Source: Promethearchaeia archaeon | GTDB taxonomy: Archaea; Asgardarchaeota; Lokiarchaeia; Sigyniarchaeales; SOKP01 | DNA length: 15,866 bases | Assembly (NCBI GenBank): GCA_029856125.1 | Contig: JAHQWJ010000135.1 | Span: 1-15,866 of the forward strand | Direction of reading: 5' to 3' | Part shown: piece by piece, positions 1 through 15,866 of the stretch | How positions within the stretch are numbered: position 1 is the stretch's first letter | How the letters are laid out: every line of letters starts with the position of its first letter | The notes under the pieces: generated by a model | What the model was told of the DNA's origin: nothing | Database searches by the model: none | What the model saw: only the letters and a program-made list of their open reading frames with translations | Translations under genes and position numbers: made by a program

Positions 1-941
1 CCTTCAATTTTACTCAGTCTATTATAGGAATAATCGCGTCTTTCTTTAAGTTTTCTAACCATATCAATGGTATGGCTACTTGAAGTTTTTAAAATGTCAA
101 TTGCTGCGAATTGGGCAATGGAACTAACAGAGAGCCTAGCACGAGCCATTTTAGCGATACCGTTTTTTATTTCCTCCAGTTTGTTTTCTGGATCGTGATA
201 GTATAGGTATCCAAGCCTCCATCCAGTTACTAAGTGAGTTTTTGAGAACCCATTTAATCCGATTATCGGAACATCTTTAGCTAACGACGCAGGACTTACA
301 TATGGTTTTTCATAGGTAATCTGATCGTAAATCTCATCTGATAAAATTGGTAGGTTATACTCCCCGGCAAGATCGATTATCTCTTTGATTTTTTTTTCTC
401 CGTATAAGACACCCGTTGGATTATTAGGAGAACATATTAGTATCGCTTGAGTTTTCGGAGTAATTTTTTTTCTTAAATCTTCAATATTGGGCTCCCAATC
501 TTGTTGTTCATCAAGCTCATATTCAACTGGCTTACCATCATAAAACTTAGCATAATTGATATAAAGGGGATAAGACGGTCCCGGCATGAGTAATTCCTTA
601 CTGTTTTCGATCATACTCGAAATAATAAAATTTATTCCCTCTGTAACACCTGATGTTACAACGATCTCGTCAGTACTAACATTGAGATTTTGTCCCTTCA
701 AGAGTTTACTTATTTCTTCTCTTAATTCAATTACTCCTAATGAATTTGCGTAATAATTCTTGCCTTTACGACTATAGACCGTTAATGCATCCGAAATAAA
801 TCTTGGAGTCTTAAAATCGTAGGCAACTGGGTCACCTATGTTTAAATGATACACTGTTTTACCCGTTTTAGCAACTTCTTGAGCTACTGCTGCGATCTCT
901 CGAATCGCATATTCTACACCTTTTACTCTATTAGTGAGCAT
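1..941 (-). CDS. PLP-dependent class I/II aminotransferase, alanine aminotransferase (AlaA/AlaAT)-like; 3' end lies outside the window
   Basis: Not in the ORF track; translated by hand from ATG at 941: MLTNRVKGVEYAIREIAAVAQEVAKTGKTVYHLNIGDPVAYDFKTP..., with SPNNPTG, LSDEIYD and the PLP-lysine motif NGFSKTHLVTGWRLGY. EYAIR and LNIGDP are typical of the AlaA subfamily. Confidence 0.92.
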   Translation of the reverse strand, partial: MLTNRVKGVEYAIREIAAVAQEVAKTGKTVYHLNIGDPVAYDFKTPRFISDALTVYSRKGKNYYANSLGVIELREEISKLLKGQNLNVSTDEIVVTSGVTEGINFIISSMIENSKELLMPGPSYPLYINYAKFYDGKPVEYELDEQQDWEPNIEDLRKKITPKTQAILICSPNNPTGVLYGEKKIKEIIDLAGEYNLPILSDEIYDQITYEKPYVSPASLAKDVPIIGLNGFSKTHLVTGWRLGYLYYHDPENKLEEIKNGIAKMARARLSVSSIAQFAAIDILKTSSSHTIDMVRKLKERRDYSYNRLSKIE

Positions 942-1055
942 ATTAATTATCCGTTATATTTCGAATTATAATTAATCTAATACAATTAAGTTTATAGAAA
1001 GAAAAATTAAATAGCTTATCTTTCTGTAGAATGAGGGTTGTAGAAATAAAAAAAG

Positions 1056-1424
1056 TTAAAACTGAAATTCCCTATTACGTAATTTTGATACCAAATGCCC
1101 TCTTGAGAGTAGCTGGATTCCAAATTGTGAACTATAGTCGCGCGAGAAATCTGTGGCGATGTTACATATCATAATTCCACCTTCTATTTCTGGTATATCA
1201 ACACAAGCTTTGTGAAGTTGCCGTAGTTGTGTTATAGAGATTTCTCTTTTCCAATCCCGAACAAAAACACCATATTTCCCAAGCTTACCGTTATTTATAA
1301 CAGCGTTAAATGTCCATGTTTTTCCAGATTCACCCTTTAATTTTTTAGGGCCGTTAATGAACTCATATTTCTCAGAAAAGACCTTCTCAGTTAACTCTGT
1401 TAACGACTTATCTCCTAATGTCAT
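1056..1424 (-). CDS. Small Mrr-catalytic-domain-like (PD-(D/E)XK restriction endonuclease fold) protein, catalytic residues apparently degenerate
   Basis: The pattern LKGESGKTWTFNAVI...GVFVRDWKREISITQL...D...GGIMIC...FSRDYSSQFGIQLL follows the archaeal Mrr_cat layout (GxSG..h.D...ExKxW...V....D..giiv..F..A..yA..gi.L). SD-like GTGA lies just upstream of the ATG. Confidence 0.65.
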   Translation of the reverse strand: MTLGDKSLTELTEKVFSEKYEFINGPKKLKGESGKTWTFNAVINNGKLGKYGVFVRDWKREISITQLRQLHKACVDIPEIEGGIMICNIATDFSRDYSSQFGIQLLSRGHLVSKLRNREFQF

Positions 1425-1609
1425 AAAATCACTTATTCTTTTATATAAATATATTTTGTAAGTAATATATAAGTGTTATTTAGATAGATTTAGAAACTAA
1501 TCTTAAAAATAAGTAATACGCAGATAACATCATCAGAATATGAGCAAATTTGAAGATTGTTTAACTTCATACGATGCCGACAAAAATCTATAATCGCACA
1601 ATTCAGGTA

Positions 1610-2461
1610 TTACGAATTAAACATTTTATAATTGAGTAATTTATATAGAGGGTAATGGCCCTCTACATCCGGACCTTCCATTTTTATGTATGTATAAAGA
1701 TATGACTGCAAAAAATCAACGAGTTTATAGGCAATCTCATTGCAAATCTCGCCACAATTAATAAAATTATCAACGAGAAAATGACACGAGCTATTATGTT
1801 TAACACAGAATTTTTTCATTTGTAAAGATAATCCTTCTGCAGAAAGAAGATCTAAATGATCCCATTGATCTTTAAATCCTCCTAAATTTTTAGGAGCAAT
1901 ATTTCTGAGTTCTTTATGTAATAAGCCTGTGTTTTTGCTTAAAATCCCATTAACTAAATATCCTAATCGCTTTGAAATTCCTTTTGATTCCTTTTTCGCT
2001 TCAACTTGACATAAAAAGACGTACTGTTTCAAGAGTTTTTCTGCTTTTTTTGCCTTAGGATAATCGATTATTTCCCACCCTGATATCTTTTTACAACTAA
2101 TTTCATTCTTGCTTGGATTTGAAAAATCAGTAGGATATATCCAACATTGAGGTGGTTTAATCCCCGAATCGTGAACTGAACATCCATTTAAAACTTCATC
2201 GAATAAAAAACATTTACCTGTGTCTTCGTTAAACCTCAATTGAAAAGAGAAAATATTACTTCTAGTAAAATCAGACTTTTCAGCATATCCTCTTTTAATA
2301 TATTCTTCCGCCAGAACCTTTGGTACATCAATCTTAATAGAACAGCATTCACCTTTGCAAATTGAAGGATCAGTACAATTAGGACCTTGTATTGCCGACT
2401 TCATTAAATTATTAAACTCTTCGATAATTTGCCAAAAGTAGCTATTTTTCTGACCTATCAA
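1610..2461 (-). CDS. YkgJ/CxxCxxCC-family cysteine-cluster (putative Zn or Fe-S binding) protein with an extra C-terminal domain
   Basis: C-x5-C-x3-CC (CTDPSICKGECC), then GKCFLF...GCSVH...KPPQCWIYP, which matches the family tail C.fL...C.iy..RP..Cr.YP. The annotated start is TTG; an ATG at codon 20 is an alternative. Confidence 0.75.
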   Translation of the reverse strand: MIGQKNSYFWQIIEEFNNLMKSAIQGPNCTDPSICKGECCSIKIDVPKVLAEEYIKRGYAEKSDFTRSNIFSFQLRFNEDTGKCFLFDEVLNGCSVHDSGIKPPQCWIYPTDFSNPSKNEISCKKISGWEIIDYPKAKKAEKLLKQYVFLCQVEAKKESKGISKRLGYLVNGILSKNTGLLHKELRNIAPKNLGGFKDQWDHLDLLSAEGLSLQMKKFCVKHNSSCHFLVDNFINCGEICNEIAYKLVDFLQSYLYTYIKMEGPDVEGHYPLYKLLNYKMFNS

Positions 2462-2525
2462 GATTGAAAAACCTTTGTTTGTACAACGAGATTAATGTGT
2501 AGAAAGAATTTTCTGGGAAGTAGTT

Positions 2526-3710
2526 TTATTTTTTCTTGATTTTTTTAATTTCTTCTTTTATATTTTTTTGAAGGATCTTAACGTCCCGCATTTGTTTACC
2601 AATTACATCTATTTCTCTCTTTAATGGAGTAGTTTCTGATAGCTTTCCTTTCTCTAACTCCTTTCTAATCGAATTATATGCCTTTATCCGATTTATATTA
2701 TTTATGAAATATTCGGTCGCATCAGCCCTGTTTGTTTTTATTCTTTGTAGAGTATCTAAAATTATTTTAATATTGTCAATAGAAGTCGTCCAATCGCTTA
2801 AATTTTCGTTCTCTCTTAAAGAATCAATTGTTTGATCGATAAATTCTAAAGCAATTAAAAATACATTTTCAGGGTTAATTTCATGGGTCTGACTTTTTGA
2901 AAAAGGTTCTAATCTTACTTCATCTAAAATATCAGAACTATAGTTAATCAAAACATCTTCGGCAGAGAATTGATGTTCATTTTCTGGACTGATTTCAGTG
3001 ATTTCTGTCACTAGTTTAAGTTCGTCCAACTCAATTTTAGTCATCAAGGGAGTGAAACGTACTTGAAGGTGCTTTTTTCCATAAAATTCGTTTCCTATCC
3101 GCATTATTTGAGTGTAGTTTTGTATAAAATTTTCACCAATGGGGGCGAACAAAACCCCATCTGAAGAATCAAGCTGAAGTAACAATGGAATAATTCTTTC
3201 CTGCTTTATAGCACCTGTTACAAGAATTTTTTGCCAAGGTGTTAAGTCAGGTAGACCGTTTAATGGATTATCTACAATTACCTTCACTTTATCTTGAAGA
3301 CCATTTCTCTCTAAATTATCTTGCGTAATCTTGGCAATCTCTTGATTTGCTTCTAATATTACGATTTTCCCTTTGGGGGCTAATCTATTTGCAAGTGCGG
3401 CAATGTACCCGCTTTTAGCCCCTAAGATAAGAAGATCGTCATCTTCTTCTAATAATAACTGTTGTAGCATAATTGAAATCATGTGCGGAGCAGATATAGT
3501 TCTAAGCGTTTCAGGGTTCTTTTTATTCAAGTAAAATAATATTGGAGCATCGTTATAAATTTTAAAATGGGAATGTAATTCGTTAGGTATAAATTTCTTT
3601 AGAGGGACGTCTAAGAAGGCTTTAACCAATCGGATATCTCTCAAGTACCCATTATAAATTAGGGTAAATAGTAGCTGAATCTTTGACCTAAATAATTTGC
3701 GACTCTCCAT
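2526..3710 (-). CDS. Protein-L-isoaspartate O-methyltransferase (Pcm/PIMT)-like protein with ~170-aa C-terminal helical extension
   Basis: PIMT hallmarks TISAPHM, SGYIAAL, PWQKILVTGA (cf. PYDxIxVtAa), GVLFAPIG and VRFTPL. Motif I is altered, so no gene symbol is given. Confidence 0.85.
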   Translation of the reverse strand: MESRKLFRSKIQLLFTLIYNGYLRDIRLVKAFLDVPLKKFIPNELHSHFKIYNDAPILFYLNKKNPETLRTISAPHMISIMLQQLLLEEDDDLLILGAKSGYIAALANRLAPKGKIVILEANQEIAKITQDNLERNGLQDKVKVIVDNPLNGLPDLTPWQKILVTGAIKQERIIPLLLQLDSSDGVLFAPIGENFIQNYTQIMRIGNEFYGKKHLQVRFTPLMTKIELDELKLVTEITEISPENEHQFSAEDVLINYSSDILDEVRLEPFSKSQTHEINPENVFLIALEFIDQTIDSLRENENLSDWTTSIDNIKIILDTLQRIKTNRADATEYFINNINRIKAYNSIRKELEKGKLSETTPLKREIDVIGKQMRDVKILQKNIKEEIKKIKKK

Positions 3711-3809
3711 GTAAACAACAGATAATGATAATATTTATAGCTATTATATCTTTTTATATTAAAATATTAAATCATCGTAATGATGACACTACTTTAGGTT
3801 TTTACTTTT

Positions 3810-4391
3810 ATGTTTGTTTTGGATGCATCAAATATTAAGAAAGCTAGGATAACAATATTTTTAATAACTTTCAATACACTCCTCTACCTTTTCTTCTCTT
3901 TTGGAAATTTAGACGATCTATTTTATATATTAGTCCAAATCAACAGTAAAGTGGTATATGATTTAGAACTATGGCGTTTATTAACATCAATGTTCTTGCA
4001 CGGAGATGCGCTTCACCTTTTCTCAAATATGGTTTCTCTATTAATTTTTGGATCGTATATCGAACTCAGTTTTTCAAAGTATAAATTTGTCTTAATATAC
4101 TTCATTTCAGGATTTTTAGGAAGTTTATTTACTTTATTTCTTTTACCGCTAAACACGGTTAGTTTAGGAGCCTCTGGCGCAATTTTCGGGTTAATAGGGG
4201 CTGCTCTATCGATATTAATAGTTGAAAGAAACAATCCATTAATTATTTTAGGATTAATCTACGTTTTTTACTTTGTTATCATGTCCTTTTCATCGGGAAT
4301 CAATTACATTGCTCATATTTTCGGTTTATTAGGAGGTTTTGTAGTAGGTTATCTTCTTAGAAGAAATAAACGAAAGGAGCAATTATATTGA
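3810..4391 (+). CDS. Rhomboid-family intramembrane serine protease
   Basis: WRLLTSMFLHGDALHLFSNM, catalytic GASG and AHIFGLLGG (catalytic His); about six hydrophobic segments. Confidence 0.96.
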   Translation: MFVLDASNIKKARITIFLITFNTLLYLFFSFGNLDDLFYILVQINSKVVYDLELWRLLTSMFLHGDALHLFSNMVSLLIFGSYIELSFSKYKFVLIYFISGFLGSLFTLFLLPLNTVSLGASGAIFGLIGAALSILIVERNNPLIILGLIYVFYFVIMSFSSGINYIAHIFGLLGGFVVGYLLRRNKRKEQLY

Positions 4392-4396
4392 GCATA

Positions 4397-5062
4397 CTAT
4401 TTTTTTTTCCTTTTACTTTTTCTGGCTAACTCCATTGTAAAATCCTTTGGACAAATGGCATTTAATGGGCATGAATCACATTTAGGGTGAATAGGTAAAC
4501 AAATTTCTTGTCCAAATCGCACAAATAAGCGATTCACCCTAATCCACTGGCTTTTTGGTATAATTTCTTTTAACCTTTTCTCAGTTTGCTCCGGTTTAGT
4601 TGTTTTAATCCATCCTAATCTGTTTGGAATCCTATGTACATGTGTATCAACCGGGATTGCAGGAATATTAAAAGCATATACCAACACACAATTCGCTGTT
4701 TTTGCGCCTACACCTGGTAAAGAAATTAACTCATTGAAATCAACTGGTACTTTTCCTAAATAATCTTCTGATATGATTCGAGAGACTTCTTTGATACGAG
4801 CAGCTTTAACCTTATAAAACCCTGATTTATGTACTAACTTCTCTAAGATTTCAATATTTGCGCTAGAAATATCCTGCGGAGTTTTATATCTGGAAAATAA
4901 ATTCCTGGTAACTTCTTCAGTACTTGAATCTCTCGTTCTTGCAGAGAGAATTGTCGATATTAATATTTTAAAAGGGTCATTTCTTTTCTTTGCTAGTTGA
5001 TCTAAATGCGCTTCTCCTTCAATAGATTTCTCTATCTCGTCGAGAATTTCTACATAATTCAT
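4397..5062 (-). CDS. nth: Endonuclease III (HhH-GPD DNA glycosylase/AP lyase, 4Fe-4S)
   Basis: PFKILISTILSART, HhH motif LPGVGAKTA (catalytic Lys), VDTHVHR (catalytic Asp) and Fe-S motif C-x6-C-x2-C-x5-C (CLPIHPKCDSCPLNAIC). Confidence 0.96.
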   Translation of the reverse strand: MNYVEILDEIEKSIEGEAHLDQLAKKRNDPFKILISTILSARTRDSSTEEVTRNLFSRYKTPQDISSANIEILEKLVHKSGFYKVKAARIKEVSRIISEDYLGKVPVDFNELISLPGVGAKTANCVLVYAFNIPAIPVDTHVHRIPNRLGWIKTTKPEQTEKRLKEIIPKSQWIRVNRLFVRFGQEICLPIHPKCDSCPLNAICPKDFTMELARKSKRKKK

Positions 5063-5065
5063 GGT

Positions 5066-6478
5066 TTAGCTTGATTCGTTGATTTTTTCGAACACATAAA
5101 GTTTTCTTTTGACAATCTGATTTTTTTTAGCATCAAGGATTGCTCTAACATGCGCTTGTTTAAATTGAAGTTTTCTATTTGATTTGTTTACGATTCTATT
5201 TAAATCTAGCATTGGTATTAGTTTGAAATTGTAAAAATTAGCCATTTCTTCTACATTTAATTGTACGTCTCCTCCGTCAATAGTGCTAATAACCGGTGTG
5301 ATTATACTAATCCTACCCTTTGGAGCTAAAACTTTGAAACTTTCCCGAAAAGTAGCTTTAAATAAAGGATTTAATTTCGATTTAATCAAGTCAACAACTT
5401 CGGTGTAATATGGTTTTTGTTTGAAAAAAGGGCCCAACTCGGGTTCCGTACAAATCCCATCAAATCTTTCTTCATTGAAAACTGAAGATAGTTGATTTAT
5501 GTCAACCTTTTTTATTCTCTCGTTTAACATATATGGTACTGATTCTTCGAGTTCGTTCAATAGCCAATTAACATTTCTTTCAGTGTTTTTAACTTTAGTT
5601 TCGTCAATATCCGTTCCAAAAACTTGAAAGTCTTCAATTAAAGCGAACATTACTATAGTCCCATTCCCAACGAAAGGATCCAGAATTGTTTTTCTCTCTC
5701 TCTGTTCAAATAAGTTTAAAAAGTTTAACAATATGAGAGCTAATTTGGGTGAAATAGCGCTTTTAAACTCTTTAAATGGTCTTTCCTCATCAATTTGTTT
5801 TTTGAAGTTAGGATCGTCACAAGTAAGCGTTCTTGCAACGTAACAACCTTCCTCTGTGAACCCGAATATAATTTCAGCTCGATCTCTATTGAACAATCCG
5901 TATTTAATAACATGATGAGGGAAAATAGGGTTTAAATTACCAGCATCAATATTTTCTTGAGGGTATTTATAATATAAAGATTTCTTAGCTCCATTTTCTT
6001 TTAATAGGACCATGATTTCTGTATTTAAAAACGGTAGGAAGTGTTTTAGGAGCACATCAGAGTAATAATTATCATCATAGAGATTAGGGTAAATTGAAAC
6101 CGCAAAAAATAAACTTTCTCTTGCAATACTAGGAAAAACCTTTTTTAGAGATGAGTCGACAACTTTAAGAATCTCTTTCCTCTTTATATCGACTTGCCTA
6201 TACTGTTCGATTTGTAATGGGAACGCACGCTGCACGGTTTGGATGTCAATAAAATTATATATCTCGGCGATCTTTTGGGTTCCGCCTAGCATATATTGAA
6301 GCTCCATTAGTTTATTAGCGTATAATCTATCATCATGTAAATCATCGAATTCTACAATGGCAATATTCGCTGAATAATCTGTAATTCGACCTTTAAACTG
6401 TGAATTTTTCAATACATTATCAATTTCAGCTAATGACAATTGCCAGTTTGACCCTAGAACAAATAAGAAGCGATTCAT
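5066..6478 (-). CDS. Trm11/TrmG10-like SAM-dependent (probably tRNA guanine-N2) methyltransferase
   Basis: N-terminal FVLGSNWQLSLAEI, ERPF...SAISPKLALILLN, motif I ILDPFVGNGT, GTDID and motif IV-like DGICTEPELG. I chose the ATG at 6478 over the track's TTG at 6484. The stop is 3 nt from the nth start, implying co-transcription. Confidence 0.78.
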   Translation of the reverse strand: MNRFLFVLGSNWQLSLAEIDNVLKNSQFKGRITDYSANIAIVEFDDLHDDRLYANKLMELQYMLGGTQKIAEIYNFIDIQTVQRAFPLQIEQYRQVDIKRKEILKVVDSSLKKVFPSIARESLFFAVSIYPNLYDDNYYSDVLLKHFLPFLNTEIMVLLKENGAKKSLYYKYPQENIDAGNLNPIFPHHVIKYGLFNRDRAEIIFGFTEEGCYVARTLTCDDPNFKKQIDEERPFKEFKSAISPKLALILLNFLNLFEQRERKTILDPFVGNGTIVMFALIEDFQVFGTDIDETKVKNTERNVNWLLNELEESVPYMLNERIKKVDINQLSSVFNEERFDGICTEPELGPFFKQKPYYTEVVDLIKSKLNPLFKATFRESFKVLAPKGRISIITPVISTIDGGDVQLNVEEMANFYNFKLIPMLDLNRIVNKSNRKLQFKQAHVRAILDAKKNQIVKRKLYVFEKINESS

Positions 6479-6551
6479 AGTCAATTAAAAATAGGTTGCT
6501 AGGTTTAAAAAGCAATCATGTTATTAGTAGTTTTAGTTAAGGAAGAATAAG

Positions 6552-7835
6552 TTAGTCCGCTCCTAATATATATTGAATTATTTTTATGATGTCAGCTTTA
6601 CGAGCAGCAGAGGGTATGTTTATATTATTTTTCGAGCAATATTTTTTCAATTCCTTAACGGTTAAAGTATTTAAATCTTCAGGTAAGTCACCTATTAGAT
6701 TAGTATTAACTCGAATTGTTTCTTCAATTTCTTCGCTTGAATGTTCAGTATCTCCAGTTATCGTACGTTCATATTTTTCACCTGAGATATTTTCAATTGC
6801 GCTTATGATAGAGTCCAGATCTTCTTTCTTTCTTTTTGGAAGCAGAGATAGAACCTCTTCCTCTTCTGGTTCTTTAATTTTTGTTTTTTTCACTTGTTTT
6901 CTTTGATACCTATCATGTTGTACGGTTTCCAACTCTTTCATTATAGTCTTATAATTATCTTTAAAATATTTTAAACTGACATTTATTACATCTGAGAGAT
7001 TATTCCATCTTTTCTGTTTAACTATCGAATCTCCCCAATGGAATAAATCTCTCTGTATATCTATAGTGATTACTTTACCTTCATAACTAACATCTAAAGT
7101 AAGCCACCTAAGGATATTTGCTATTATAATGTCGTTATCAAAAGCTGAAAACCCGTATTCTCTTCCTAAAGAAGAGAAAATAGATAAAGTACCGAACGCT
7201 GCCACCTGCCCGTTATGATATTCTGAGGTTAATACCATTGGAACTTTAGGACAATCCTCTTCAACCCATTGCTTTCCATCGAATCGGTTTCTCCAGCAAT
7301 TCAGGCCTCCTCTTACAATGACTTCGACTTTCACGTTTTTTTCTTCTTCCTTTGTCAGTTTAAGCGTTCCTAAAGAACAAGCACTTGATAAAACGATTTT
7401 TTTAATATTTTCTGTGATATAGTGCGGTTTAAAATTAAGTATCAAAGGTCTTTTCTGTAAATTAACATAATTTACTGAATCATTAATTTCATCATTAATA
7501 AATTCAAATCCGAAAAACTTGGTTAATTCGTTAATATTAGTTCTATTTGTGTGTTCTCCACCCCTCGAGCCGACGATTAGTAAGCTTCCACCCGTTCTAA
7601 CGTATTCCTCTAAAACTTCTATTTCTCTCGGATCAAGATTAATATTTTTAGGAATGGACATTATAATCGCATTGTAGTTTTTAACTTTATCTAATGAATA
7701 AAATCCCGCTTCAATTTTCCCTAATTTGTAAGCAGAAGTGAAGAGGAACTGGGTGAAATCTGCATAGCTCGAAGCTTCTAAGGTAAGCATGTTGTTGTGG
7801 CTATAATCGAGACCGACTGTAATGTCATTTTTCAT
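6552..7835 (-). CDS. Multidomain protein: N-terminal GIFT/GATase-like (IFT52/GldG/DUF4350-like) domain + putative ribbon-helix-helix + charged linker + C-terminal HeH/LEM/SAP-like domain
   Basis: Residues ~1-246: VGLDYSH, EIEVLEEYVRTGGSLLIVGSRGGE..TNIN...FG...D, GQVAAFG...DN...NILRWL. Residues ~254-293: VITIDIQRDL...IVKQKRWNNLSDVINVSL. Residues ~385-422: DLNTLTVKELKKYCSKNNINIPSAARKADII. The ORF is solid; the domain calls are by eye. Confidence 0.72.
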   Translation of the reverse strand: MKNDITVGLDYSHNNMLTLEASSYADFTQFLFTSAYKLGKIEAGFYSLDKVKNYNAIIMSIPKNINLDPREIEVLEEYVRTGGSLLIVGSRGGEHTNRTNINELTKFFGFEFINDEINDSVNYVNLQKRPLILNFKPHYITENIKKIVLSSACSLGTLKLTKEEEKNVKVEVIVRGGLNCWRNRFDGKQWVEEDCPKVPMVLTSEYHNGQVAAFGTLSIFSSLGREYGFSAFDNDIIIANILRWLTLDVSYEGKVITIDIQRDLFHWGDSIVKQKRWNNLSDVINVSLKYFKDNYKTIMKELETVQHDRYQRKQVKKTKIKEPEEEEVLSLLPKRKKEDLDSIISAIENISGEKYERTITGDTEHSSEEIEETIRVNTNLIGDLPEDLNTLTVKELKKYCSKNNINIPSAARKADIIKIIQYILGAD

Positions 7836-7977
7836 AATTAAATCATTCCAATTTATGTGTTTAAAAATATAATAATTTCTGCTTTTAAATATTTACAGCA
7901 AAATTATCTTTCGCAAAAGAAATAATAAAATCGTATAATATAGTGGTTTTATAAAAATAATATTTACTCGTAAATAA

Positions 7978-7988
7978 AAAAAAAAAGA
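7978..7988 (-). terminator. Archaeal-type oligo(T) terminator after the membrane acyltransferase gene
   Basis: An A-run at ~7976-7986 on the + strand reads as T11 on the - strand, immediately after the stop codon at 7989-7991. Confidence 0.55.
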
Positions 7989-9077
7989 TTAGATTTTAAT
8001 CTTAATATCATATCTAGCAAGTAGTAGCGCTATTCCTGCCTCTATAGCTATTGGTAAAACTCCAATTAAAAGCATAGTAATTAATGGATTAGCCACAAGA
8101 AAACTTCTATCAAGAAGACCTATAGCAACATCAAAAATAAACGCTAATATAAAGAGTAATAGCATATTTTTCCCCATTTCTGAGAGTACAGGAATCCTAA
8201 AGTTCATTTTTTCGAACCCATAGAAAACTGCAATTAAGAAGCCAGAGGCTGCGATCGCTAGGAATGCTAGAGATGTTGTTGCGTCGTGATGTTCTGCAGG
8301 TTGGATCCAGTCAAGACAGTAGAAGGCTATTATAAATATGGTTGCGACTGGTAAAATTCTTTTTTTAAATCCAACAATTGGATCTTCGGGTTCCATTTTG
8401 TACCATTGAGAAAAACAAGTCCCAGCAATAGCAATTGCAGCATGATTTAATGAGTTAAACGGAAATGGAATGGTTCCCACTCCTCCAAGCCCTTTATGCT
8501 CAAAAAGTGGAGTCGCGTAGAGTATCGCATGAACTATCAATATTCCGATGCAGACATATAACCTTTTATCTGGACTTTTAGGGATTAAGTACGCCAAGAG
8601 ATAAGCAGCAAAAGTTCCAATCGCTAAATTTGCTAGGGTACCATACCATAACACTTCATCCCAAGGAATTCCGTCACCAAAAAGTAGTCCCCCAATTAAT
8701 CCGTCATCTAAGAATGCTAGCCCATAGAGAACTGCTACACGGATAATACCATGTTTCCATGCAGCTCCAACGCCTTTCTTTTTCAATCTGCTGGTAAAAG
8801 CAATATATGCCACAAATCCTAAAATGAACATGAAAATTTGTTGGCCAATATCAATTATTGTTATTAAAGCTGGATACCCGTCATAATACTGGAATCCGTG
8901 ATTTAAAAGGGGTGGTCCTATAGGAGCCTCTCCGGGAAAATTACCTGAGAGTGGCCAAGTTATCACTGAAATTATAAGGAATATAATTATAAGTCCGCGA
9001 AATTGGTCGAGCCATTCATAACGTTTATGCAATAGTTTTTTTCCTTCTCGTTCTACATCAATTTTTTCTTCAGCCAT
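7989..9077 (-). CDS. Multi-pass membrane acyltransferase, heparan-alpha-glucosaminide N-acetyltransferase (HGSNAT)/DUF5009(NagX)-like
   Basis: N-terminal RYEWLDQFRGLII (family RxxsLDxfRG), a His in LLNHG at the expected catalytic position, ITIIDIGQQIFMFILG (cf. TxxDlvfPxFlFixG) and a late MGKNMLLLF (cf. GxNxL); about 10 hydrophobic segments. Confidence 0.72.
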   Translation of the reverse strand: MAEEKIDVEREGKKLLHKRYEWLDQFRGLIIIFLIISVITWPLSGNFPGEAPIGPPLLNHGFQYYDGYPALITIIDIGQQIFMFILGFVAYIAFTSRLKKKGVGAAWKHGIIRVAVLYGLAFLDDGLIGGLLFGDGIPWDEVLWYGTLANLAIGTFAAYLLAYLIPKSPDKRLYVCIGILIVHAILYATPLFEHKGLGGVGTIPFPFNSLNHAAIAIAGTCFSQWYKMEPEDPIVGFKKRILPVATIFIIAFYCLDWIQPAEHHDATTSLAFLAIAASGFLIAVFYGFEKMNFRIPVLSEMGKNMLLLFILAFIFDVAIGLLDRSFLVANPLITMLLIGVLPIAIEAGIALLLARYDIKIKI

Positions 9078-9138
9078 TTTTTCATCAACGCTTTTTATTT
9101 TTCAAATTCTGAAAGTAAATTTGGCATTTACTAGTTTT

Positions 9139-9162
9139 GATACTTCTAAATTTAAAAGTATC
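9139..9162. promoter_or_regulatory. 24-bp near-perfect palindrome, putative operator in the divergent acyltransferase/MFS promoter
   Basis: GATACTTCTAAATTTAAAAGTATC: 11 of 12 positions pair, with a TATA-like core. Confidence 0.5.
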
Positions 9163-9245
9163 TCTTCCAAAAAAAAAGCAAACTTATTATAAGATTATAA
9201 CGAAATAGAATTAATTTTACAAATTATTAAAAGAGTATCTTAAAT

Positions 9246-10700
9246 ATGAAGAAAAGAGAGTTAGTTTCGTTATTTTTCTTTTTGTCGTTAATCTTAATCA
9301 TTATAATGGATAGTGCTTTGTTTCTACCTAATGAAGTATTAATTGCCGCTGATTTGGGAATATATTTTGAAACTCTAGGCATTATCATAGGTATATATAC
9401 TATTGTAAATGGTATTTCAATTCTTATATTCGGATATTTAACCGATATGATAGAGAGAAAAAAGATTTTAATCCTTGCTGGAATACTGTGGTCATTAACG
9501 GCAATATTGCATATATTTGTGGAAGAACTCTGGCAGTTGTTCCTTGTTAGGATCGTAGCAGCAATTGCCGTAAGCGTAACTACTCCACTTGTAATTTCAT
9601 ATTTAGCAGACATAATTTCATCTGATTCACGCTCAAAATCTTTCGCATTTTGGGGATTGATAACAAGCATTGGAACCTTGGTAGCAGGAGTATTAGCATT
9701 AGCGTTTAACACTATTGATTTCGAGGCTATAGAATTACCTCTCCTTCAGAAAATCGACTTTATCGCCCTTAATTATCCTAATGTGTTATATACTTGGAAG
9801 CTTCCATATTTTTATCTTGGTATCATTGCTCTTATATTTACGATCCTTAATTATTTTATTACCATAGAGCCTAAAAGAGCTGCAAAAGAAAAACAATTAG
9901 AAGAAGTTTTTTCAGATGAGACTATGCGCTATTCCTACAAAATTAAATTTTCAGATTTAAAATATGTCTTCAAAAGGAAATCAAACTTCTTCCTGATGTT
10001 TAATTTTTTTGATGTTATCGCTTCAGGTTTAATATTAGCCTATATTTTCCCCTATATCCAGCTGGAAATTGGAGTAAGCGTCGTCGATATCAAGGTCATT
10101 ATTCTGTTTCTGTTCATAATTGTCGTGGGGTTAATTGTGGGACAATTTTGGCTCGCACATTTGGGAGATAAAAAAGTTAAGCGTGGAGATCTTTCTGGTA
10201 GGGTGAAAGTAGCGGTTATTTGTTCGATTTTGAATTTACCATTCTTTTTATTTGGATTTGCAATGACACCTAATGTTTCAGACTCTACTTTTTTCTTTGG
10301 CACTTTATTGGTCAACGATATTGGATTTTGGGTTTTGTGGTTAGTGTATTGTTCATTTCTAGGGGTAGGTCTCGCTTTCACTATGGGAATTGGTCCTAAT
10401 TGGTATAGTTCTCTTATTGACGTTAATTTCCCCGAGAATCGAGGGACTATGGTTGCGGTAGGATCCTTTATAGATTCCATCGGACGCGCCTTAGGGGCAG
10501 TTATAGGTGGTTTCGTAGTAACATTAACGGGAAGCTTTTCTGCGACAATTTTCTGGTCTTTTTTGATATTTGGGATATTTTCTACTTGCTTATGGATTCC
10601 ACTTTTCTTTACTGCTAAAAAAGATTATTTAGATATAAACGAAGCCATGAAAAATAGAGCATCTTCGTTAACTAACATGCAACCCGAGGAATCCCGGTAA
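9246..10700 (+). CDS. Major facilitator superfamily transporter
   Basis: About 12 TM segments; motif A variant GYLTDMIERK, LFLVRIVAA, YLADIISSDSRSKSF; second-repeat LAHLGDK and DVNFPENRGT. Confidence 0.93.
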   Translation: MKKRELVSLFFFLSLILIIIMDSALFLPNEVLIAADLGIYFETLGIIIGIYTIVNGISILIFGYLTDMIERKKILILAGILWSLTAILHIFVEELWQLFLVRIVAAIAVSVTTPLVISYLADIISSDSRSKSFAFWGLITSIGTLVAGVLALAFNTIDFEAIELPLLQKIDFIALNYPNVLYTWKLPYFYLGIIALIFTILNYFITIEPKRAAKEKQLEEVFSDETMRYSYKIKFSDLKYVFKRKSNFFLMFNFFDVIASGLILAYIFPYIQLEIGVSVVDIKVIILFLFIIVVGLIVGQFWLAHLGDKKVKRGDLSGRVKVAVICSILNLPFFLFGFAMTPNVSDSTFFFGTLLVNDIGFWVLWLVYCSFLGVGLAFTMGIGPNWYSSLIDVNFPENRGTMVAVGSFIDSIGRALGAVIGGFVVTLTGSFSATIFWSFLIFGIFSTCLWIPLFFTAKKDYLDINEAMKNRASSLTNMQPEESR

Positions 10701-10762
10701 TTAATTTAACAAATTGTTGCTGATATTTCATTCAAGTTCGATGGCGAGAAAGAATTTTAAAA

Positions 10763-11620
10763 TCACTTTTTATAAACAGTTATATCCATTACAATATGGT
10801 ATAAATGAGGACCATAACTTTTTACGAATCTCTTTGCTAACAGGTCGCATTTAAAATCACTTTTTTCTGCAATTACTTTAAACTCATTAAACGTATCTAA
10901 GTATTTTTCTTTATCAACTATACCCTCATAATGATATATCGTACCTTCAATTTTGGCCAATGTTAACGCTTCTTTTATGAAGTCTTTTGGAGCAGGAAAT
11001 ACCCCCATAATTACTCGATCTGCTTTAAGACCCGAATTGCTCAAAGTCATTACTTCAAGCTTACTATCGCCATAAATTGGAGTAATTATTTCCTCAAAAT
11101 GATTGAGCTTAATATTCTCAGTTAAGTATTTATAAGAATTAGGGTTCAACTCTATACTAAAAATTTTTTTAGGTTTTGAATGTCTTGCTATGGGTAAGGA
11201 GAAATAACCTATACCTGCAAACATATCAACAATAACTTCACCTTCTTTTACTAAAGTAGCTAGAAATTTCCTTTCATTTAGATTTCCCATACTAAACATT
11301 ATCTTTGTGAAATCAAATCTATAGATTACCCCATGTTCTTTATGTTTAGCAATGGGATTATCTATTCCAACAAGAAACTCTATTTTTTCTGGAGTTCTAA
11401 ATTGTCCTTTTACTCGCCCTGAGTTTAAATAAATAGATTTCAATTTTGGTAATAAATCTAAGTATTTTTCAGCAATTAGAATTTTTTTTTCAAGTAATAG
11501 TGGTTTAAATTTTACTATTGCTACATCACCAATGGTTTGAAATCCTCGAGGAAGAGCAGACAATTCCTCGTCAGTTAGAATTCCTATAAGAGCGTCCTTA
11601 AGTTTATCTTTAAATCCCAT
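10763..11620 (-). CDS. taw2: Trm5/TYW2 (Met-10+) family SAM-dependent enzyme, most likely Taw2 tRNA(Phe) wyosine aminocarboxypropyltransferase
   Basis: LPRGFQTIGDVAIV, HKEHG..Y.FD..KIMFSMGNLNER, VDMFAGIGYFSLPIA, IELNP, ADRVIMG, HYEG and VKSYGP. The 285-aa length (no Trm5 D1 domain) and MFSxGN/GIGYF/IMG favour Taw2 over Trm5. Confidence 0.8.
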   Translation of the reverse strand: MGFKDKLKDALIGILTDEELSALPRGFQTIGDVAIVKFKPLLLEKKILIAEKYLDLLPKLKSIYLNSGRVKGQFRTPEKIEFLVGIDNPIAKHKEHGVIYRFDFTKIMFSMGNLNERKFLATLVKEGEVIVDMFAGIGYFSLPIARHSKPKKIFSIELNPNSYKYLTENIKLNHFEEIITPIYGDSKLEVMTLSNSGLKADRVIMGVFPAPKDFIKEALTLAKIEGTIYHYEGIVDKEKYLDTFNEFKVIAEKSDFKCDLLAKRFVKSYGPHLYHIVMDITVYKK

Positions 11621-11685
11621 TAATTATCAAAAATGTAAGTCTATGATTTTAACCTTAAACAAAATCAAGTTAAATTATTATGTTA

Positions 11686-11716
11686 TAGTATATTACTTTT
11701 AAAAAATATTATACTA
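11686..11716. promoter_or_regulatory. 31-bp imperfect palindrome over a TATA-like element upstream of the acyl-CoA ligase
   Basis: TAGTATATTACTTTTAAAAAATATTATACTA: 13 of 15 pairs. It is followed by SD-like AGAGGA (11724-11729) before the ATG at 11736. Confidence 0.45.
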
Positions 11717-11735
11717 AAAAATTAGAGGATAAAAA

Positions 11736-13595
11736 ATGACTAGTTTAAATGATCCAGAGTTTCTGGTTGACGAAAGCAAGGTTTGGTTTACTGGAGGTTA
11801 TTGGCCTGAAGGTGTTCCTCACCAACTTAAGGATGTTGAAGGCGTTGAAATGCTCCCAATGTGGGAGGGTTTTATTAAATCTGCTGACGATTACGGAACC
11901 TGGGATAATGATATTTGTATTTTTGTATACGGTCCTTACATAGAAAGAGTAAATCTAAGAACTCTTTTCGAATACGGGAAGAGATTTGGTACATTTCTCT
12001 ATGATACTTTAGGAATTAGAAAAGGAGATGTAGTAGCAATCGATCTTCCTAATTCTATAAATTTTGTTGTGGCGTATATGGGTTGTATGTATATCGGGGC
12101 AATCGCACAAGGTATTAATCCTACTTATAAGCCAATGGAACTATTGCACTCATTAACAATGACAAAAGCGAAGGTGTTAGTGCTAATGGACATGCTCTAT
12201 ATCGCCGGTCCAGCAACTATCCTACCAAAAACTGATGTGAAATATCTGATCCCCTCCAATTTTGTTGACTTTTTCACTGCCGATGAAGAAACTATCCAAA
12301 GTCTTGGAATTCCATCTGCTAAAGATAAAATTCCGAGCGGAACAGAAGATTATGAAATACACTGGATGAAGAACATAATAGAAAACACGGAACCAAAAGA
12401 AATTTCTGTCGAAATAGATATTTGGAAAGATCCCGCAGTTTATCTTATGACGGGAGGTACAACTGGACTCCCCAAAGTAGCAATGCTCAGTCACGCAAAT
12501 CTTATCTCAAATTTACACATGATTAAACCTTGGACCAACCTCGAACCAGGAATGATCACAATTGGAAGCATTCCCTTTTTCCATAGTTTTGGGTTGACTT
12601 GCGTTATGAATGGGGCATTAACCTTAGGGTTACAAATGTTACTTTTTCCCAAGCCACCTGCAGACGATGTTTTATCAGAAACCATTAATAAATTGGATGC
12701 TCCTCAAGGAATTATGTACACCGGAGTAGAAATGTTGTTTAAGAGATTAACAGATTATGTTCATGAATTAGGAGTAGAAGAATATAAGAAGAAATATAGC
12801 TTTGCAGAGAAATTAAGATACGCTACGCAAGGTGCGGGACCACTCCATGATCATATCCGTGTACCTTTCGAAGAAATTTTCTGTCCGATTAGAGTTGGTT
12901 ACGGCCTAACTGAAACGTCACCAGTAACTAGTATTGCTCCTTTCTGGGGACCTAATAAACCCGGTAAGCTAGGATTACCTGTTCCAGGGGTAGATTGGGC
13001 GATATTTGATTCAGCTGATTTTGACACGGGTCCAATTTGCGACGGTACTCCTGAGATGAATCATTTTGGTGTAGAACATACAGGAGAAATTTGTGTTGCA
13101 GGACCACATATAATGCTTGGATACTTAGGCGTACAAAGTGAACAAGAAGATAATCTTAAGATGTGGAATGGAAAGAGATGGTTGCTTACTGGGGACATAG
13201 GGTTTATGGACGAAAACGGTTTTTGCGAAATAAGAGATAGAAAGAAATCTTTAATCAAAGTCTCAGGACATTCCGTATTTCCAAAGGAAGTAGAAGATTT
13301 AATGGGGCATCACCCTATGATTGACGAAGTTGCTGTCGCGGGACTTCCAGATGAGGCTTCTGGTGAGAAAGTTAAAGCATGGGTTGTACTAAAAAAAGGA
13401 TTCAAAGTCGGTAAAAATGTGGAAATTCAAGACATTAAGAATTGGTGCATGGAAAATATGGCAAAATGGAAAAGTCCAAGACTTATCGAGGTTGTTCGGA
13501 AACTTCCAGTAAGTATGACTGGAAAAGTTCAACGTAGGGAACTTCAAGAAAAAGATATCGCAAAAATGGAAAGTGGTAAAGAAATAAAAGGTTAA
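11736..13595 (+). CDS. fadD: Long-chain-fatty-acid--CoA ligase (AMP-binding, FadD-like)
   Basis: P-loop YLMTGGTTGLPK, PFFHSFG, GYGLTETSP, GEICVAGPHIMLGY, TGDIG, DRKKSLIKVSG and LPVSMTGKVQRR. Substrate specificity cannot be determined from sequence. Confidence 0.92.
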   Translation: MTSLNDPEFLVDESKVWFTGGYWPEGVPHQLKDVEGVEMLPMWEGFIKSADDYGTWDNDICIFVYGPYIERVNLRTLFEYGKRFGTFLYDTLGIRKGDVVAIDLPNSINFVVAYMGCMYIGAIAQGINPTYKPMELLHSLTMTKAKVLVLMDMLYIAGPATILPKTDVKYLIPSNFVDFFTADEETIQSLGIPSAKDKIPSGTEDYEIHWMKNIIENTEPKEISVEIDIWKDPAVYLMTGGTTGLPKVAMLSHANLISNLHMIKPWTNLEPGMITIGSIPFFHSFGLTCVMNGALTLGLQMLLFPKPPADDVLSETINKLDAPQGIMYTGVEMLFKRLTDYVHELGVEEYKKKYSFAEKLRYATQGAGPLHDHIRVPFEEIFCPIRVGYGLTETSPVTSIAPFWGPNKPGKLGLPVPGVDWAIFDSADFDTGPICDGTPEMNHFGVEHTGEICVAGPHIMLGYLGVQSEQEDNLKMWNGKRWLLTGDIGFMDENGFCEIRDRKKSLIKVSGHSVFPKEVEDLMGHHPMIDEVAVAGLPDEASGEKVKAWVVLKKGFKVGKNVEIQDIKNWCMENMAKWKSPRLIEVVRKLPVSMTGKVQRRELQEKDIAKMESGKEIKG

Positions 13596-13618
13596 TTTTT
13601 TTAATTTTTTTTTTAATT
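13596..13618 (+). terminator. Tandem oligo(T) terminator after fadD
   Basis: T7-AA-T10-AA-T tract directly after the TAA, filling the gap to the convergent kinase gene. Confidence 0.65.
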
Positions 13619-15244
13619 TTACGTGTTTAGGCGTTTATGCGTTTTCTTCATAATTTTATAAATGTTAGTGAATTCTTTAAAGAGTTTGTCGTAAACTTCC
13701 CTGTTTTCTGGATTTGGTGTAAATACATTGGAAAATTGAATTAAATCAGGAATTTGATCCCAAGTAAGGTACCCCAGTCCCACTGAAGCGATAAAAGCAG
13801 CTCCACGAGCGTTTGCTTGAATAGGATCTTTAACTTGTTTAATAGTCCTATTGAGGACATCGGCAAAAATTTGACACCAGACATTACTCGATCCACCTCC
13901 ACCTATTATGTTAAGTTCGGGCATTACGACATCTTTTTTCGACATTCCCGGATTCGCTTTTATCTTACGCTTTTGAATAAATTTTTCAACATAAGTATGA
14001 AGCCACCTTACATTATAAGCAACACCCTCAAAAATTGCTCTAATTAAATGTTCACGTGACATTTCTAGCGATAGATTATAAAAACCACCACGAACCGCAT
14101 GATCGTCAACTGGAGCTCTTTCTCCAATAAGCCAAGGGGTGAATATTAGATTATTAGACCCCGCAGGAACCTTTTCAACAATTTTATCGAATATTTTATA
14201 CACATCTGGAACTTGTTCCTCTTTAAGTAATTCATCCTTATGATAAAGAATTTTATCCCTTAAAAATGAGAGAGCCCCACCAGCGATTTCTTGTTCGTTT
14301 ACTAAGAAATACTTCCCTTTAATTGCTGCAGGAAAACTTCCAATGTTATGAAAAATATCTGTTTTCTTGTAAGGTATGTGACATAATACCCAATCAGAGG
14401 TTCCAATATAAATGTGACCTTCGTAATCCCTCACTGCTCCTGATCCTATTGTTGCTGCGTGGAGGTCGGGAGCACCTATAATTACTTTGGTTTCTTTGTT
14501 TAATCCAAGTTCGCTTGCTACTTCGTCTTTCAAAGGTCCTAAGATGTCTGTAGACCATCTTAAATCTGTTGGGAATTTACTTCGATCTACCTTAGCCCAT
14601 TTCATTAATTTGTCATAATACTTAATATTGTTGATATCACGAATGTCTGTAATGAAATGCATTTGAATGGAGGCATACGAAGCTGCAAATTTGCCCGTTA
14701 ATTTCATATTGATATAATCCTGAGGTTCCAAAAACATGAAGGTTGCGTCGTAAATGTCAGGTTTTTTATCTTTTAACCACAAAATGTGACCAAGAGGGTC
14801 CTTCCCTGATAAAGTAGGACCCCCACCAGTTACTTTAACGAATTTTAATATTTTACGTAATGAATATCCGCTTATTTGGATTAAACTTTTATGGAGTTTT
14901 TTCATATATGGAGCTCCTCGAGTGTCCATCCATATTATAGCATTCATTAAATGATTTCCATTTTTATCTAAAGCCACCGTTCCACTCCACTGACTTGAAT
15001 TACAAACGCCCACTATATCGTCTACCGAAACTTTCCCGCTGTTAATAACTTGTTTTGCAGTCTTGAGTATGGCATTCCACCAGTCGTCAGGATCTTGTTC
15101 GACTCCGCCTCCCTTCTCTACGTGTAATGGTACTTCTTGAAAAGCCCAATCAATTACCTCACCTTGAGTTGAGACAATAGCACACTTAGGTCCCCCTGTG
15201 CCATGATCTATAGCAAGAATATATTTTTGATCTAAATCTGACAT
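13619..15244 (-). CDS. FGGY-family carbohydrate kinase (xylulokinase-like)
   Basis: ILAIDHGTGGPK, VEQDPDDWW, AIIWMDTR, GAPD..A..GSG, YIGTS, FTPWLIGERAP, RAIFEGVA and IIGGGGSSNVWCQIFADV. Confidence 0.94.
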   Translation of the reverse strand: MSDLDQKYILAIDHGTGGPKCAIVSTQGEVIDWAFQEVPLHVEKGGGVEQDPDDWWNAILKTAKQVINSGKVSVDDIVGVCNSSQWSGTVALDKNGNHLMNAIIWMDTRGAPYMKKLHKSLIQISGYSLRKILKFVKVTGGGPTLSGKDPLGHILWLKDKKPDIYDATFMFLEPQDYINMKLTGKFAASYASIQMHFITDIRDINNIKYYDKLMKWAKVDRSKFPTDLRWSTDILGPLKDEVASELGLNKETKVIIGAPDLHAATIGSGAVRDYEGHIYIGTSDWVLCHIPYKKTDIFHNIGSFPAAIKGKYFLVNEQEIAGGALSFLRDKILYHKDELLKEEQVPDVYKIFDKIVEKVPAGSNNLIFTPWLIGERAPVDDHAVRGGFYNLSLEMSREHLIRAIFEGVAYNVRWLHTYVEKFIQKRKIKANPGMSKKDVVMPELNIIGGGGSSNVWCQIFADVLNRTIKQVKDPIQANARGAAFIASVGLGYLTWDQIPDLIQFSNVFTPNPENREVYDKLFKEFTNIYKIMKKTHKRLNT

Positions 15245-15360
15245 AATTAATATAAAGGTTGTAAATGTAAATAAAGATTTATTGAGTCAGATATTTTTCA
15301 ATAATTATATGAGCAATTTTAGATTTTCTTAATCAAATAATATTATTTTGTTGATTCTAA

Positions 15361-15866
15361 ATGGAATATGAGGAAAAAATAGCGAAAATTAAAAATATTG
15401 TTGATTTGCCTATTAGCAAATTTAAACCAGACGAATTAAAAGGGATATTAGAAAGGTATGAGAAAAATCATGCGAAGTCAAAAGTGGCTTTTGAGAGAGC
15501 AAGAAAAATAATCCCTGGTGGTGTAGAACATAATCTCGCCTTTAATTATCCATTCCCTCTAGAGAGTAAGCGCGTTTTTGATTGTTACATGGAAACTATT
15601 GATGATATCGTCCTAACAGATTATTTAATGGACGGAGGACCGATTATCCTTGGTCATAATCACCCGGTTTTGACGGAAAAGGTTATCGAAGTTATTCGGG
15701 ATGTTGGACCGTGTCATGGAATAACTAACGAATACGAATATCTTGCTGCAGAACAACTACAAAAGCATTTTCCTTCGTGCGAAATTATAAGATGGCTCCA
15801 AACAGGAACAGAAGCCGATATGCTTGCTATAAGGATTGCTAGAGTAGCTACAAATCGTAAATGGAT
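15361..15866 (+). CDS. Class III PLP aminotransferase, glutamate-1-semialdehyde aminomutase (HemL)-like but probably not HemL; truncated by the window end
   Basis: Not in the ORF track; translated by hand: MEYEEKIAKIKNIVDLP...SKVAFERARKIIPGGVEHNLAFNYPFP...DYLMDGGPIILGHNHP...IRWLQTGTEADMLAIRIARVATNRKW. The frame is open to the window end. Confidence 0.9.
   Translation, partial: MEYEEKIAKIKNIVDLPISKFKPDELKGILERYEKNHAKSKVAFERARKIIPGGVEHNLAFNYPFPLESKRVFDCYMETIDDIVLTDYLMDGGPIILGHNHPVLTEKVIEVIRDVGPCHGITNEYEYLAAEQLQKHFPSCEIIRWLQTGTEADMLAIRIARVATNRKW

Follow-up and report, generated by a model that had tools for sequence, protein, structure and literature searches.

We examined a 15,866-nucleotide stretch of a Promethearchaeia archaeon (contig JAHQWJ010000135.1 of GenBank assembly GCA_029856125.1, positions 1 to 15,866; hereafter the window) for a minus-strand gene whose product joins a GIFT domain, a ribbon-helix-helix (RHH) module and a helix-extended-helix (HeH) tail (Table 1). 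The window is AT-rich, with a GC content of 30-39%, and its proteins find their best relatives in metagenome-assembled genomes of Promethearchaeota and Lokiarchaeota. A database search with the GIFT-RHH-HeH protein returned 530 relatives, the best 120 of which are full-length at 63-98% identity; the named relatives among these 120 all belong to Promethearchaeota, Lokiarchaeota, Hermodarchaeota or Thorarchaeota bins and are labelled 'hypothetical protein'. The N-terminus is in register with 21 aligned orthologues, and the open reading frame (ORF) is a genuine gene, conserved, from an Asgard archaeon of Lokiarchaeia type. An ORF on the opposite strand (6586-6906, +) was treated as spurious. As the original prediction had it, this is one ORF lacking a signal peptide or transmembrane helix: the highest 19-residue Kyte-Doolittle mean is 0.93, and judged by hydropathy alone the protein has neither a transmembrane segment nor a hydrophobic signal peptide, so that we take it to be soluble and cytoplasmic.

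Table 1. Features of the GIFT-RHH-HeH gene, its neighbours in the window and related genes elsewhere in the genome.
Feature	Position	Strand	Basis or remark
Whole gene, predicted soluble GIFT-RHH-HeH protein	6552..7835	(-)	427 aa + stop, ATG start
GIFT domain, IFT52-type, aa 1-246	7098..7835	(-)	Pfam, PDB phmmer, AlphaFold2 + Foldseek, alignment
Predicted RHH module, aa 252-294 (strand 254-260, helix A 262-275, helix B 280-293)	6954..7082	(-)	AlphaFold2, fold lists, hhalign
Long helix C, aa 295-319, charged, poorly conserved	6879..6953	(-)	AlphaFold2, alignment
Conserved short helix motif, aa 333-356 (LPKRKKEDLDSIISAIENISGEKYE)	6768..6839	(-)	alignment, AlphaFold2
HeH/SAP/Rho_N-type helix-extended-helix tail, aa 384-425	6561..6686	(-)	PF12949, AlphaFold2, own-genome HeH copies
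Promoter-like AT-rich block, TATA-like element about 50 nt upstream of ATG	7863..7896	(-)	kept in two same-genus orthologous loci
Trm11/Trm-G10-like methyltransferase	5066-6484	(-)	long divergent N-terminal part
Multi-pass membrane protein, 362 aa	7989-9077	(-)	no Pfam family
MFS transporter	9246-10700	(+)	
Taw2/Tyw2 (tRNA wyosine pathway)	10763-11620	(-)	
Topo VI-B-like HeH carrier	L019:433-3774 = G000:C84:17432-20773	(-)	Topo-VIb_trans
ScpA-like HeH carrier	L020:855-1883 = G000:C84:32854-33882	(-)	ORF directly after SMC stop codon
Gelsolin-domain HeH carrier, 376 aa	L005:1348-2478 = G000:C126	(-)	Pfam
Short paralogue, 309 aa, GIFT + RHH-like, no tail, 36% identical	L002:1507-2436, G000:C55	(-)	
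GIFT domain (IFT52_GIFT-type, 28.3 bits) in large membrane-anchored ORF, 1,324 codons stop to stop	G000:C26:2120-6091	(+)	

The fold and homology of the GIFT domain are established. Pfam PF23355 (IFT52_GIFT) is matched at 33.2 bits, above its cut-off of 27.2 (31.4 bits in a six-frame search of the genome), and ABC_transp_aux (PF09822, GldG-type) reaches 27.6 bits, under its family cut-off. The top entry of a phmmer search of PDB sequences was Chlamydomonas IFT52, aligned over aa 32-133 at E 2.6e-10, which a family profile improved to 8e-12. In an AlphaFold2 model built on 63 relatives, the predicted local distance difference test (pLDDT) score exceeds 90 across the domain, and Foldseek ranked the N-terminal domains of mouse and Chlamydomonas IFT52 (5fms/5fmr) at the top (E 2e-16 to 1e-15, template-modelling score 0.78-0.88), followed by OST48/Wbp1 (E 1e-10) and ThuA-like proteins resembling class I glutamine amidotransferases. 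Strand 84-88 leads into G-S/A/T-R-G-G in the orthologues, with residue 90 being S, A or T, and no conserved nucleophile (Cys) stands at the elbow after the central strand among the aligned orthologues, the elbow being placed by secondary structure. Because no nucleophile is conserved, a catalytic amidotransferase-like function was rejected. The GIFT domain of IFT52 is itself a protein-interaction surface, contacting the tetratricopeptide repeats (TPRs) of IFT88 and the IFT57/38 coiled coil (PMC9753473).

Assignment of the RHH module draws on structure and profile-profile comparison. The AlphaFold2 model of the segment spanning aa 247-320 (pLDDT 87.5) folds as strand-helix-helix (beta-alpha-alpha), followed by a long helix. 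Foldseek with this segment gave a list almost wholly of RHH proteins (ParD, ORF56, NikR, CopG, omega, MazE9), and the top 50 of 48,161 chains compared by VIA-align were likewise almost only RHH proteins (Z 3.8-6.3), with root-mean-square deviations of 1.5 Å over 44 residues for PutA52 and 1.4-1.8 Å over 42-46 residues for NikR (10-26% identity). The part of the family alignment that spans the segment was also run in hhalign against ten aligned RHH_1 hits of the same genome; it matched with a probability of 93.2% (E 3e-7) over 42 columns, with the strand and both helices in register. Controls stayed far lower: none of 60 column shuffles exceeded 25.1% (mean 0.9%), and the values were 0.9% for the reversed profile, 0.4% for HeH compared with the own-genome RHH_1 profile and 0.6% for the RHH segment compared with the HeH profile. 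The strand follows K-h-h-T-h-D/N-h, the pattern of K-I-V-T-V-N-V in the own-genome RHH_1 proteins, and helix B begins with the usual Ser N-cap. A PDB search with the whole-family profile retrieved no RHH entry. On the basis of the segment model, the fold lists and the shuffle-controlled hhalign match, we accept the RHH fold for this predicted module and regard homology to RHH families as probable. The module may mediate dimerisation and DNA binding.

The C-terminal tail is basic and gives a borderline match to the HeH family PF12949, with weaker Pfam matches to Rho_N, SAP and Ish1, which we take to be helix-extended-helix families related to HeH. A precomputed PF12949 hit is present on many orthologues, and AlphaFold2 places helices at 393-402 and 413-424, with the residues between them in extended conformation (pLDDT 83-86). 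Searching PDB with the HeH profile retrieved no eukaryotic LEM or HeH chain; therefore no specifically eukaryotic affinity is claimed for the tail. The three modules of the original prediction thus stand within the boundaries it gave them, the GIFT domain by Pfam, PDB and Foldseek, the RHH module by fold and hhalign, and the HeH tail by its borderline PF12949 match and AlphaFold2.

Conservation resolves four modules separated by variable linkers. Across 22 orthologues, mean pairwise identity is 78% in the GIFT domain, 73% in the RHH module, 77% in the helix motif at aa 333-356 (RKKEDLDSIISAIENISGEKYE) and 74% in the HeH tail, compared with 36-45% in the linkers between them (45% in helix C and 36% in the second linker, aa 357-383). 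The helix motif is a fourth conserved element of the protein because of this 77% identity. AlphaFold2 predicts a helix at 337-351 within it at medium confidence, and it is still recognisable in order-level orthologues of 40-45% identity that carry no HeH. Helix C, in turn, may extend the predicted dimer. The linker expected to join the modules is charged as proposed, but it is no plain linker, since helix 295-319 and the conserved helix 333-356 lie inside it. Pfam returned nothing useful for aa 301-379, an ESM Atlas search with aa 247-427 gave no usable match, and an NCBIfam scan of the whole protein produced one weak match without meaning.

We followed the protein through 301 genomes of the phylum, and the HeH tail alone through 71 genomes of the family. 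Some match was present in 246 of the 301, but matches spanning residues 1 to about 425 were confined to the window's own GTDB genus, in which 27 of 27 other sampled genomes matched, mostly at full length. Other genera of the family matched over residues ~4-374, with ORFs of about 420 aa and a different tail; the sister family matched over residues ~6-330 at 38-43% identity, and the remainder of the phylum over the GIFT domain alone. The tail search likewise found HeH on the GIFT orthologue only in the window's genus. Judged from these alignments, the order-wide unit is GIFT plus RHH plus the conserved helix, with a swappable C-terminal tail. The tails outside the genus (P0123, P0130, P0141, P0163; P0124, P0126, P0128, P0129, P0131) are themselves conserved and of other types, ...ETGKKA[VI]W.GKIT..F..WLK..Y. 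and ...LD.A..S.GS.DDF.KK..EFK...., and those of P0123 and P0126 gave no Pfam match.

Five proteins in this genome pass the IFT52_GIFT cut-off, against none in 14 control genomes. Besides the short GIFT + RHH-like paralogue of Table 1, there are two GIFT + coiled-coil proteins (307 and 457 aa) and one ThuA-like protein. The evidence conflicts on whether the GIFT-RHH-HeH protein or its paralogues lie nearer to IFT52: the paralogues score 41-49 bits on Pfam IFT52_GIFT versus 33 for this protein, whereas phmmer against solved IFT52 chains gives this protein 43 bits and the paralogues 32-33. About 600 bp from the 309-aa paralogue lies an Arf/Ras-like small GTPase gene (L002:296-910 (+), G000:C55), with a 182-aa small metallophosphoesterase-like ORF, read by eye, between them. 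The 1,324-codon ORF shows, also by eye, subtilase-like motifs and a C-terminal hydrophobic stretch, a classical extracytoplasmic setting for a GIFT domain.

The HeH core, TVKQLK.YC..NNI..PS..RK..IIKLI, is near-identical in the GIFT-RHH-HeH protein and three other proteins of the genome. The Topo VI-B-like protein (1,113 aa; Topo-VIb_trans 99.4 bits) carries one HeH near its C-terminus. The ORF after SMC has an N-terminal HeH/Ish1-type module (27.5 bits), and the best Pfam match of its remainder is SMC_ScpA at a sub-threshold E of 0.0046. Its HeH is encoded upstream of the first ATG, GTG or TTG; an ATT codon beside the SMC stop would give a 342-aa ScpA-like protein, which suggests that translation of this HeH would need a non-canonical (ATT) start or translational coupling. 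The third carrier pairs an N-terminal gelsolin repeat (28.3 bits) with two C-terminal HeH/Ish1 modules (HeH 41.2, Ish1 46.1 bits) that pass PF12949; it thereby couples an actin-regulator-type domain with a putative chromatin tag. ORFs of Topo VI-B and ScpA-like size carry HeH in many genera of the family, on the same contig and with conserved spacing, the Topo VI-B-sized ones holding 1-4 copies. Two of the four HeH carriers are chromosome machines, and of all the evidence this speaks most strongly for DNA or chromatin as the target of the module in these organisms.

The gene lies downstream of a block that is, by inference only, its own promoter, and the 67-bp spacer to the next gene holds T5 tracts. 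Downstream come the Trm11/Trm-G10-like methyltransferase and endonuclease III. Upstream in the window, Taw2 lies past the MFS transporter and the 362-aa membrane protein, which are inserted only in this genus; in orthologous loci at 57%, 50% and 45% identity it is directly upstream on the same strand, and the Taw2-GIFT adjacency recurs in three of five sister-family genomes. The Trm11-like gene is directly downstream at three within-family levels (75%/66%, same genus; 57%; 50%), and the 45%-identity locus has a different downstream neighbour. This linkage of Taw2 and GIFT genes across the order is suggestive, the genomes being related and not independent.

Each module has known counterparts. 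IFT52 (OSM-6/BLD1; PF23355; PDB 5FMR, 5FMS, 8BD7 chain B) shares the cytoplasmic, non-catalytic GIFT fold and is the best match in both sequence and structure. Correspondence is nevertheless restricted to the first 246 residues (by sequence, to aa 32-133). IFT52 continues with a TPR-binding middle and an IFT46-binding C-terminal domain, neither of which is present here, residues 247-427 forming the RHH module, helices and HeH instead; nor is there a cilium or other intraflagellar transport context here. Because these post-GIFT parts are missing, the protein is a member of the GIFT family and not an IFT52 orthologue. GldG/ABC_transp_aux and OST48/Wbp1 share the GIFT fold too, but they are extracytoplasmic or luminal and membrane-anchored, unlike the protein described here. 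With NikR, PutA (RHH52) and HicB-type and ParD-type antitoxins, the predicted RHH has in common the beta-alpha-alpha unit, the canonical strand pattern and the helix-B N-cap Ser, and, as in HicB, it lies C-terminal to another domain. It differs in having a 246-aa GIFT domain as partner, in falling outside all Pfam RHH families and in lacking an adjacent toxin gene. The tail resembles HeH/LEM-like, SAP, Rho_N and Ish1 modules (PF12949, PF02037, PF07498, PF10281) in its ~40 aa, its basic character, its two helices with an extended segment and the shared pattern L..LTVKELK....I..P...RK..II; no evidence ties it specifically to eukaryotic LEM/BAF biology.

The original prediction knew of no description of the combination, and a literature search of the searchable library, pairing the GIFT domain, IFT52, HeH or LEM with Asgard, Lokiarchaeota or archaea, found no paper describing such an archaeal protein or the GIFT-RHH-HeH arrangement. 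No curated family covers the whole architecture, yet parts of it are already annotated, the GIFT domain by Pfam and two orthologues by the pipeline of JGI, which labels them 'Arc/MetJ-type ribon-helix-helix transcriptional regulator', an independent call in favour of the RHH assignment. The architecture is real, conserved and undescribed, and it is assembled from known modules.

From the observed domain folds and homologies, their conservation, the solubility of the protein and an HeH shared with chromosome-associated proteins, we arrive at a dimeric, DNA-tethered adaptor or regulator, a cytoplasmic homodimer on DNA, to which we give an even chance of being correct. Two RHH modules would pair their beta strands, forming the dimer and probably a DNA-reading ribbon, while the HeH on its flexible charged tether would add general affinity for DNA or chromatin in this genus. 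The two large, non-catalytic GIFT domains could then serve as interaction platforms, as IFT52 does for IFT88 and IFT57/38, or as ligand sensors, and the conserved helix 333-356 may be a docking motif to which either a partner or the GIFT domain of the same protein binds. The outcome would be a nucleoid-tethered adaptor or an RHH-type regulator. The function suggested in the original prediction, a one-component regulator or nucleoid organiser, is accordingly plausible.

Several observations count against this interpretation. The RHH segment (aa 247-300) matched no Pfam family at E up to 10, and a six-frame genome search with PF01402 (RHH_1) gave 17 matches elsewhere and none at this locus. The fold matches to RHH proteins have weak scores (Foldseek E of 0.5 or more, VIA Z no higher than 6.3), and at one strand position predicted to point outward the residue is Asp/Glu or varies. 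The HeH tail scores 23.6 bits within the whole protein and 28.7 bits in isolation, just under the PF12949 cut-off of 28.9, and its best PDB match is the Mu-like prophage protein 2OUT (E 5.5e-4), not a eukaryotic LEM/HeH chain. Other genera have swapped the tail for unrelated ones, so HeH tethering is not essential to the core function. Operator repeats were sought in the upstream alignment; only the AT-rich promoter-like block is conserved, in a region too AT-rich to call repeats. The analysis identified no operator, ligand or partner.

The protein could instead be a classical one-component transcription factor, in which a small molecule such as a sugar is sensed by the GIFT domain (sugar sensing being the role originally suggested for such domains) and specific promoters, perhaps its own or those of neighbouring genes, are repressed through the RHH. 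A sensor combined with an RHH recalls NikR and PutA, the best structural matches include NikR and PutA52, and the gene has its own promoter-like block. However, the analysis identified neither a ligand pocket nor a conserved operator repeat, conservation of the GIFT surface is high (78% identity across the genus), and the GIFT domain of IFT52, to our knowledge the sole cytoplasmic one studied functionally, binds proteins. The extra conserved helix and swappable tails also suit an adaptor better, and we regard a one-component regulator as rather unlikely. A protein that does not bind DNA at all, with the RHH-like unit only dimerising and the HeH binding protein or RNA in a pure protein-protein scaffold, would account for the missing RHH profile match and the acidic or variable outward strand position. 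It would also suit an HeH that recurs on an actin-regulator-type gelsolin-domain protein and is not kept beyond the genus. The presence of the same HeH on the chromosome-associated Topo VI-B-like and ScpA-like proteins, together with the agreement of the RHH strand with the genome's native RHH_1 proteins, makes such a scaffold unlikely.

The neighbourhood raises the further idea of a tRNA or RNA modification partner, or a regulator of the flanking Taw2/Tyw2 and Trm11/Trm-G10-like enzymes, whose HeH/Rho_N-like tail would bind RNA. The same-strand Taw2-GIFT order and the downstream Trm11-like gene described above favour it; two inserted genes break the adjacency in the own genus, it is also broken in two of the five order-level genomes, and the relatedness of the genomes and the different neighbour at 45% identity weaken the linkage further. 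No feature of the protein itself points to tRNA, and this role seems very unlikely. An archaeal counterpart or ancestor of IFT52, providing the backbone for a transport or coat-like complex, could be argued from the IFT52 matches of the GIFT domain and from the number of IFT52_GIFT proteins relative to control genomes. We nonetheless find it extremely doubtful: the GIFT domain alone matches, RHH and other modules stand where IFT52 has its IFT88/IFT70-binding stretch and its IFT46-binding C-terminal domain, and the paralogues outscore this protein on Pfam IFT52_GIFT.

Extending the DNA-tethered adaptor, the lineage-specific HeH might be a general chromatin-targeting tag in Lokiarchaeia, carried by the GIFT-RHH hub as well as by Topo VI-B, the SMC kleisin and an actin regulator of gelsolin type. 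Anchored to the nucleoid, the GIFT-RHH-HeH protein would in that case connect the chromosome, cytoskeleton and other machinery as an interaction hub, and would be a prokaryotic forerunner of eukaryotic HeH/LEM chromatin tethers on an IFT52-type scaffold, a proposal that we consider quite improbable. The protein brings together a domain whose best known relative is a ciliary scaffold, IFT52, and a putative HeH, a kind of module used for chromatin tethering in eukaryotes. Should it prove to be no more than an RHH regulator whose sensor is unusual, it would extend the archaeal transcription factors modestly. As a DNA-anchored hub, on the other hand, it would offer an experimentally tractable example of a cytoplasmic GIFT role before cilia existed, and would show how Asgard cells target proteins to the chromosome.

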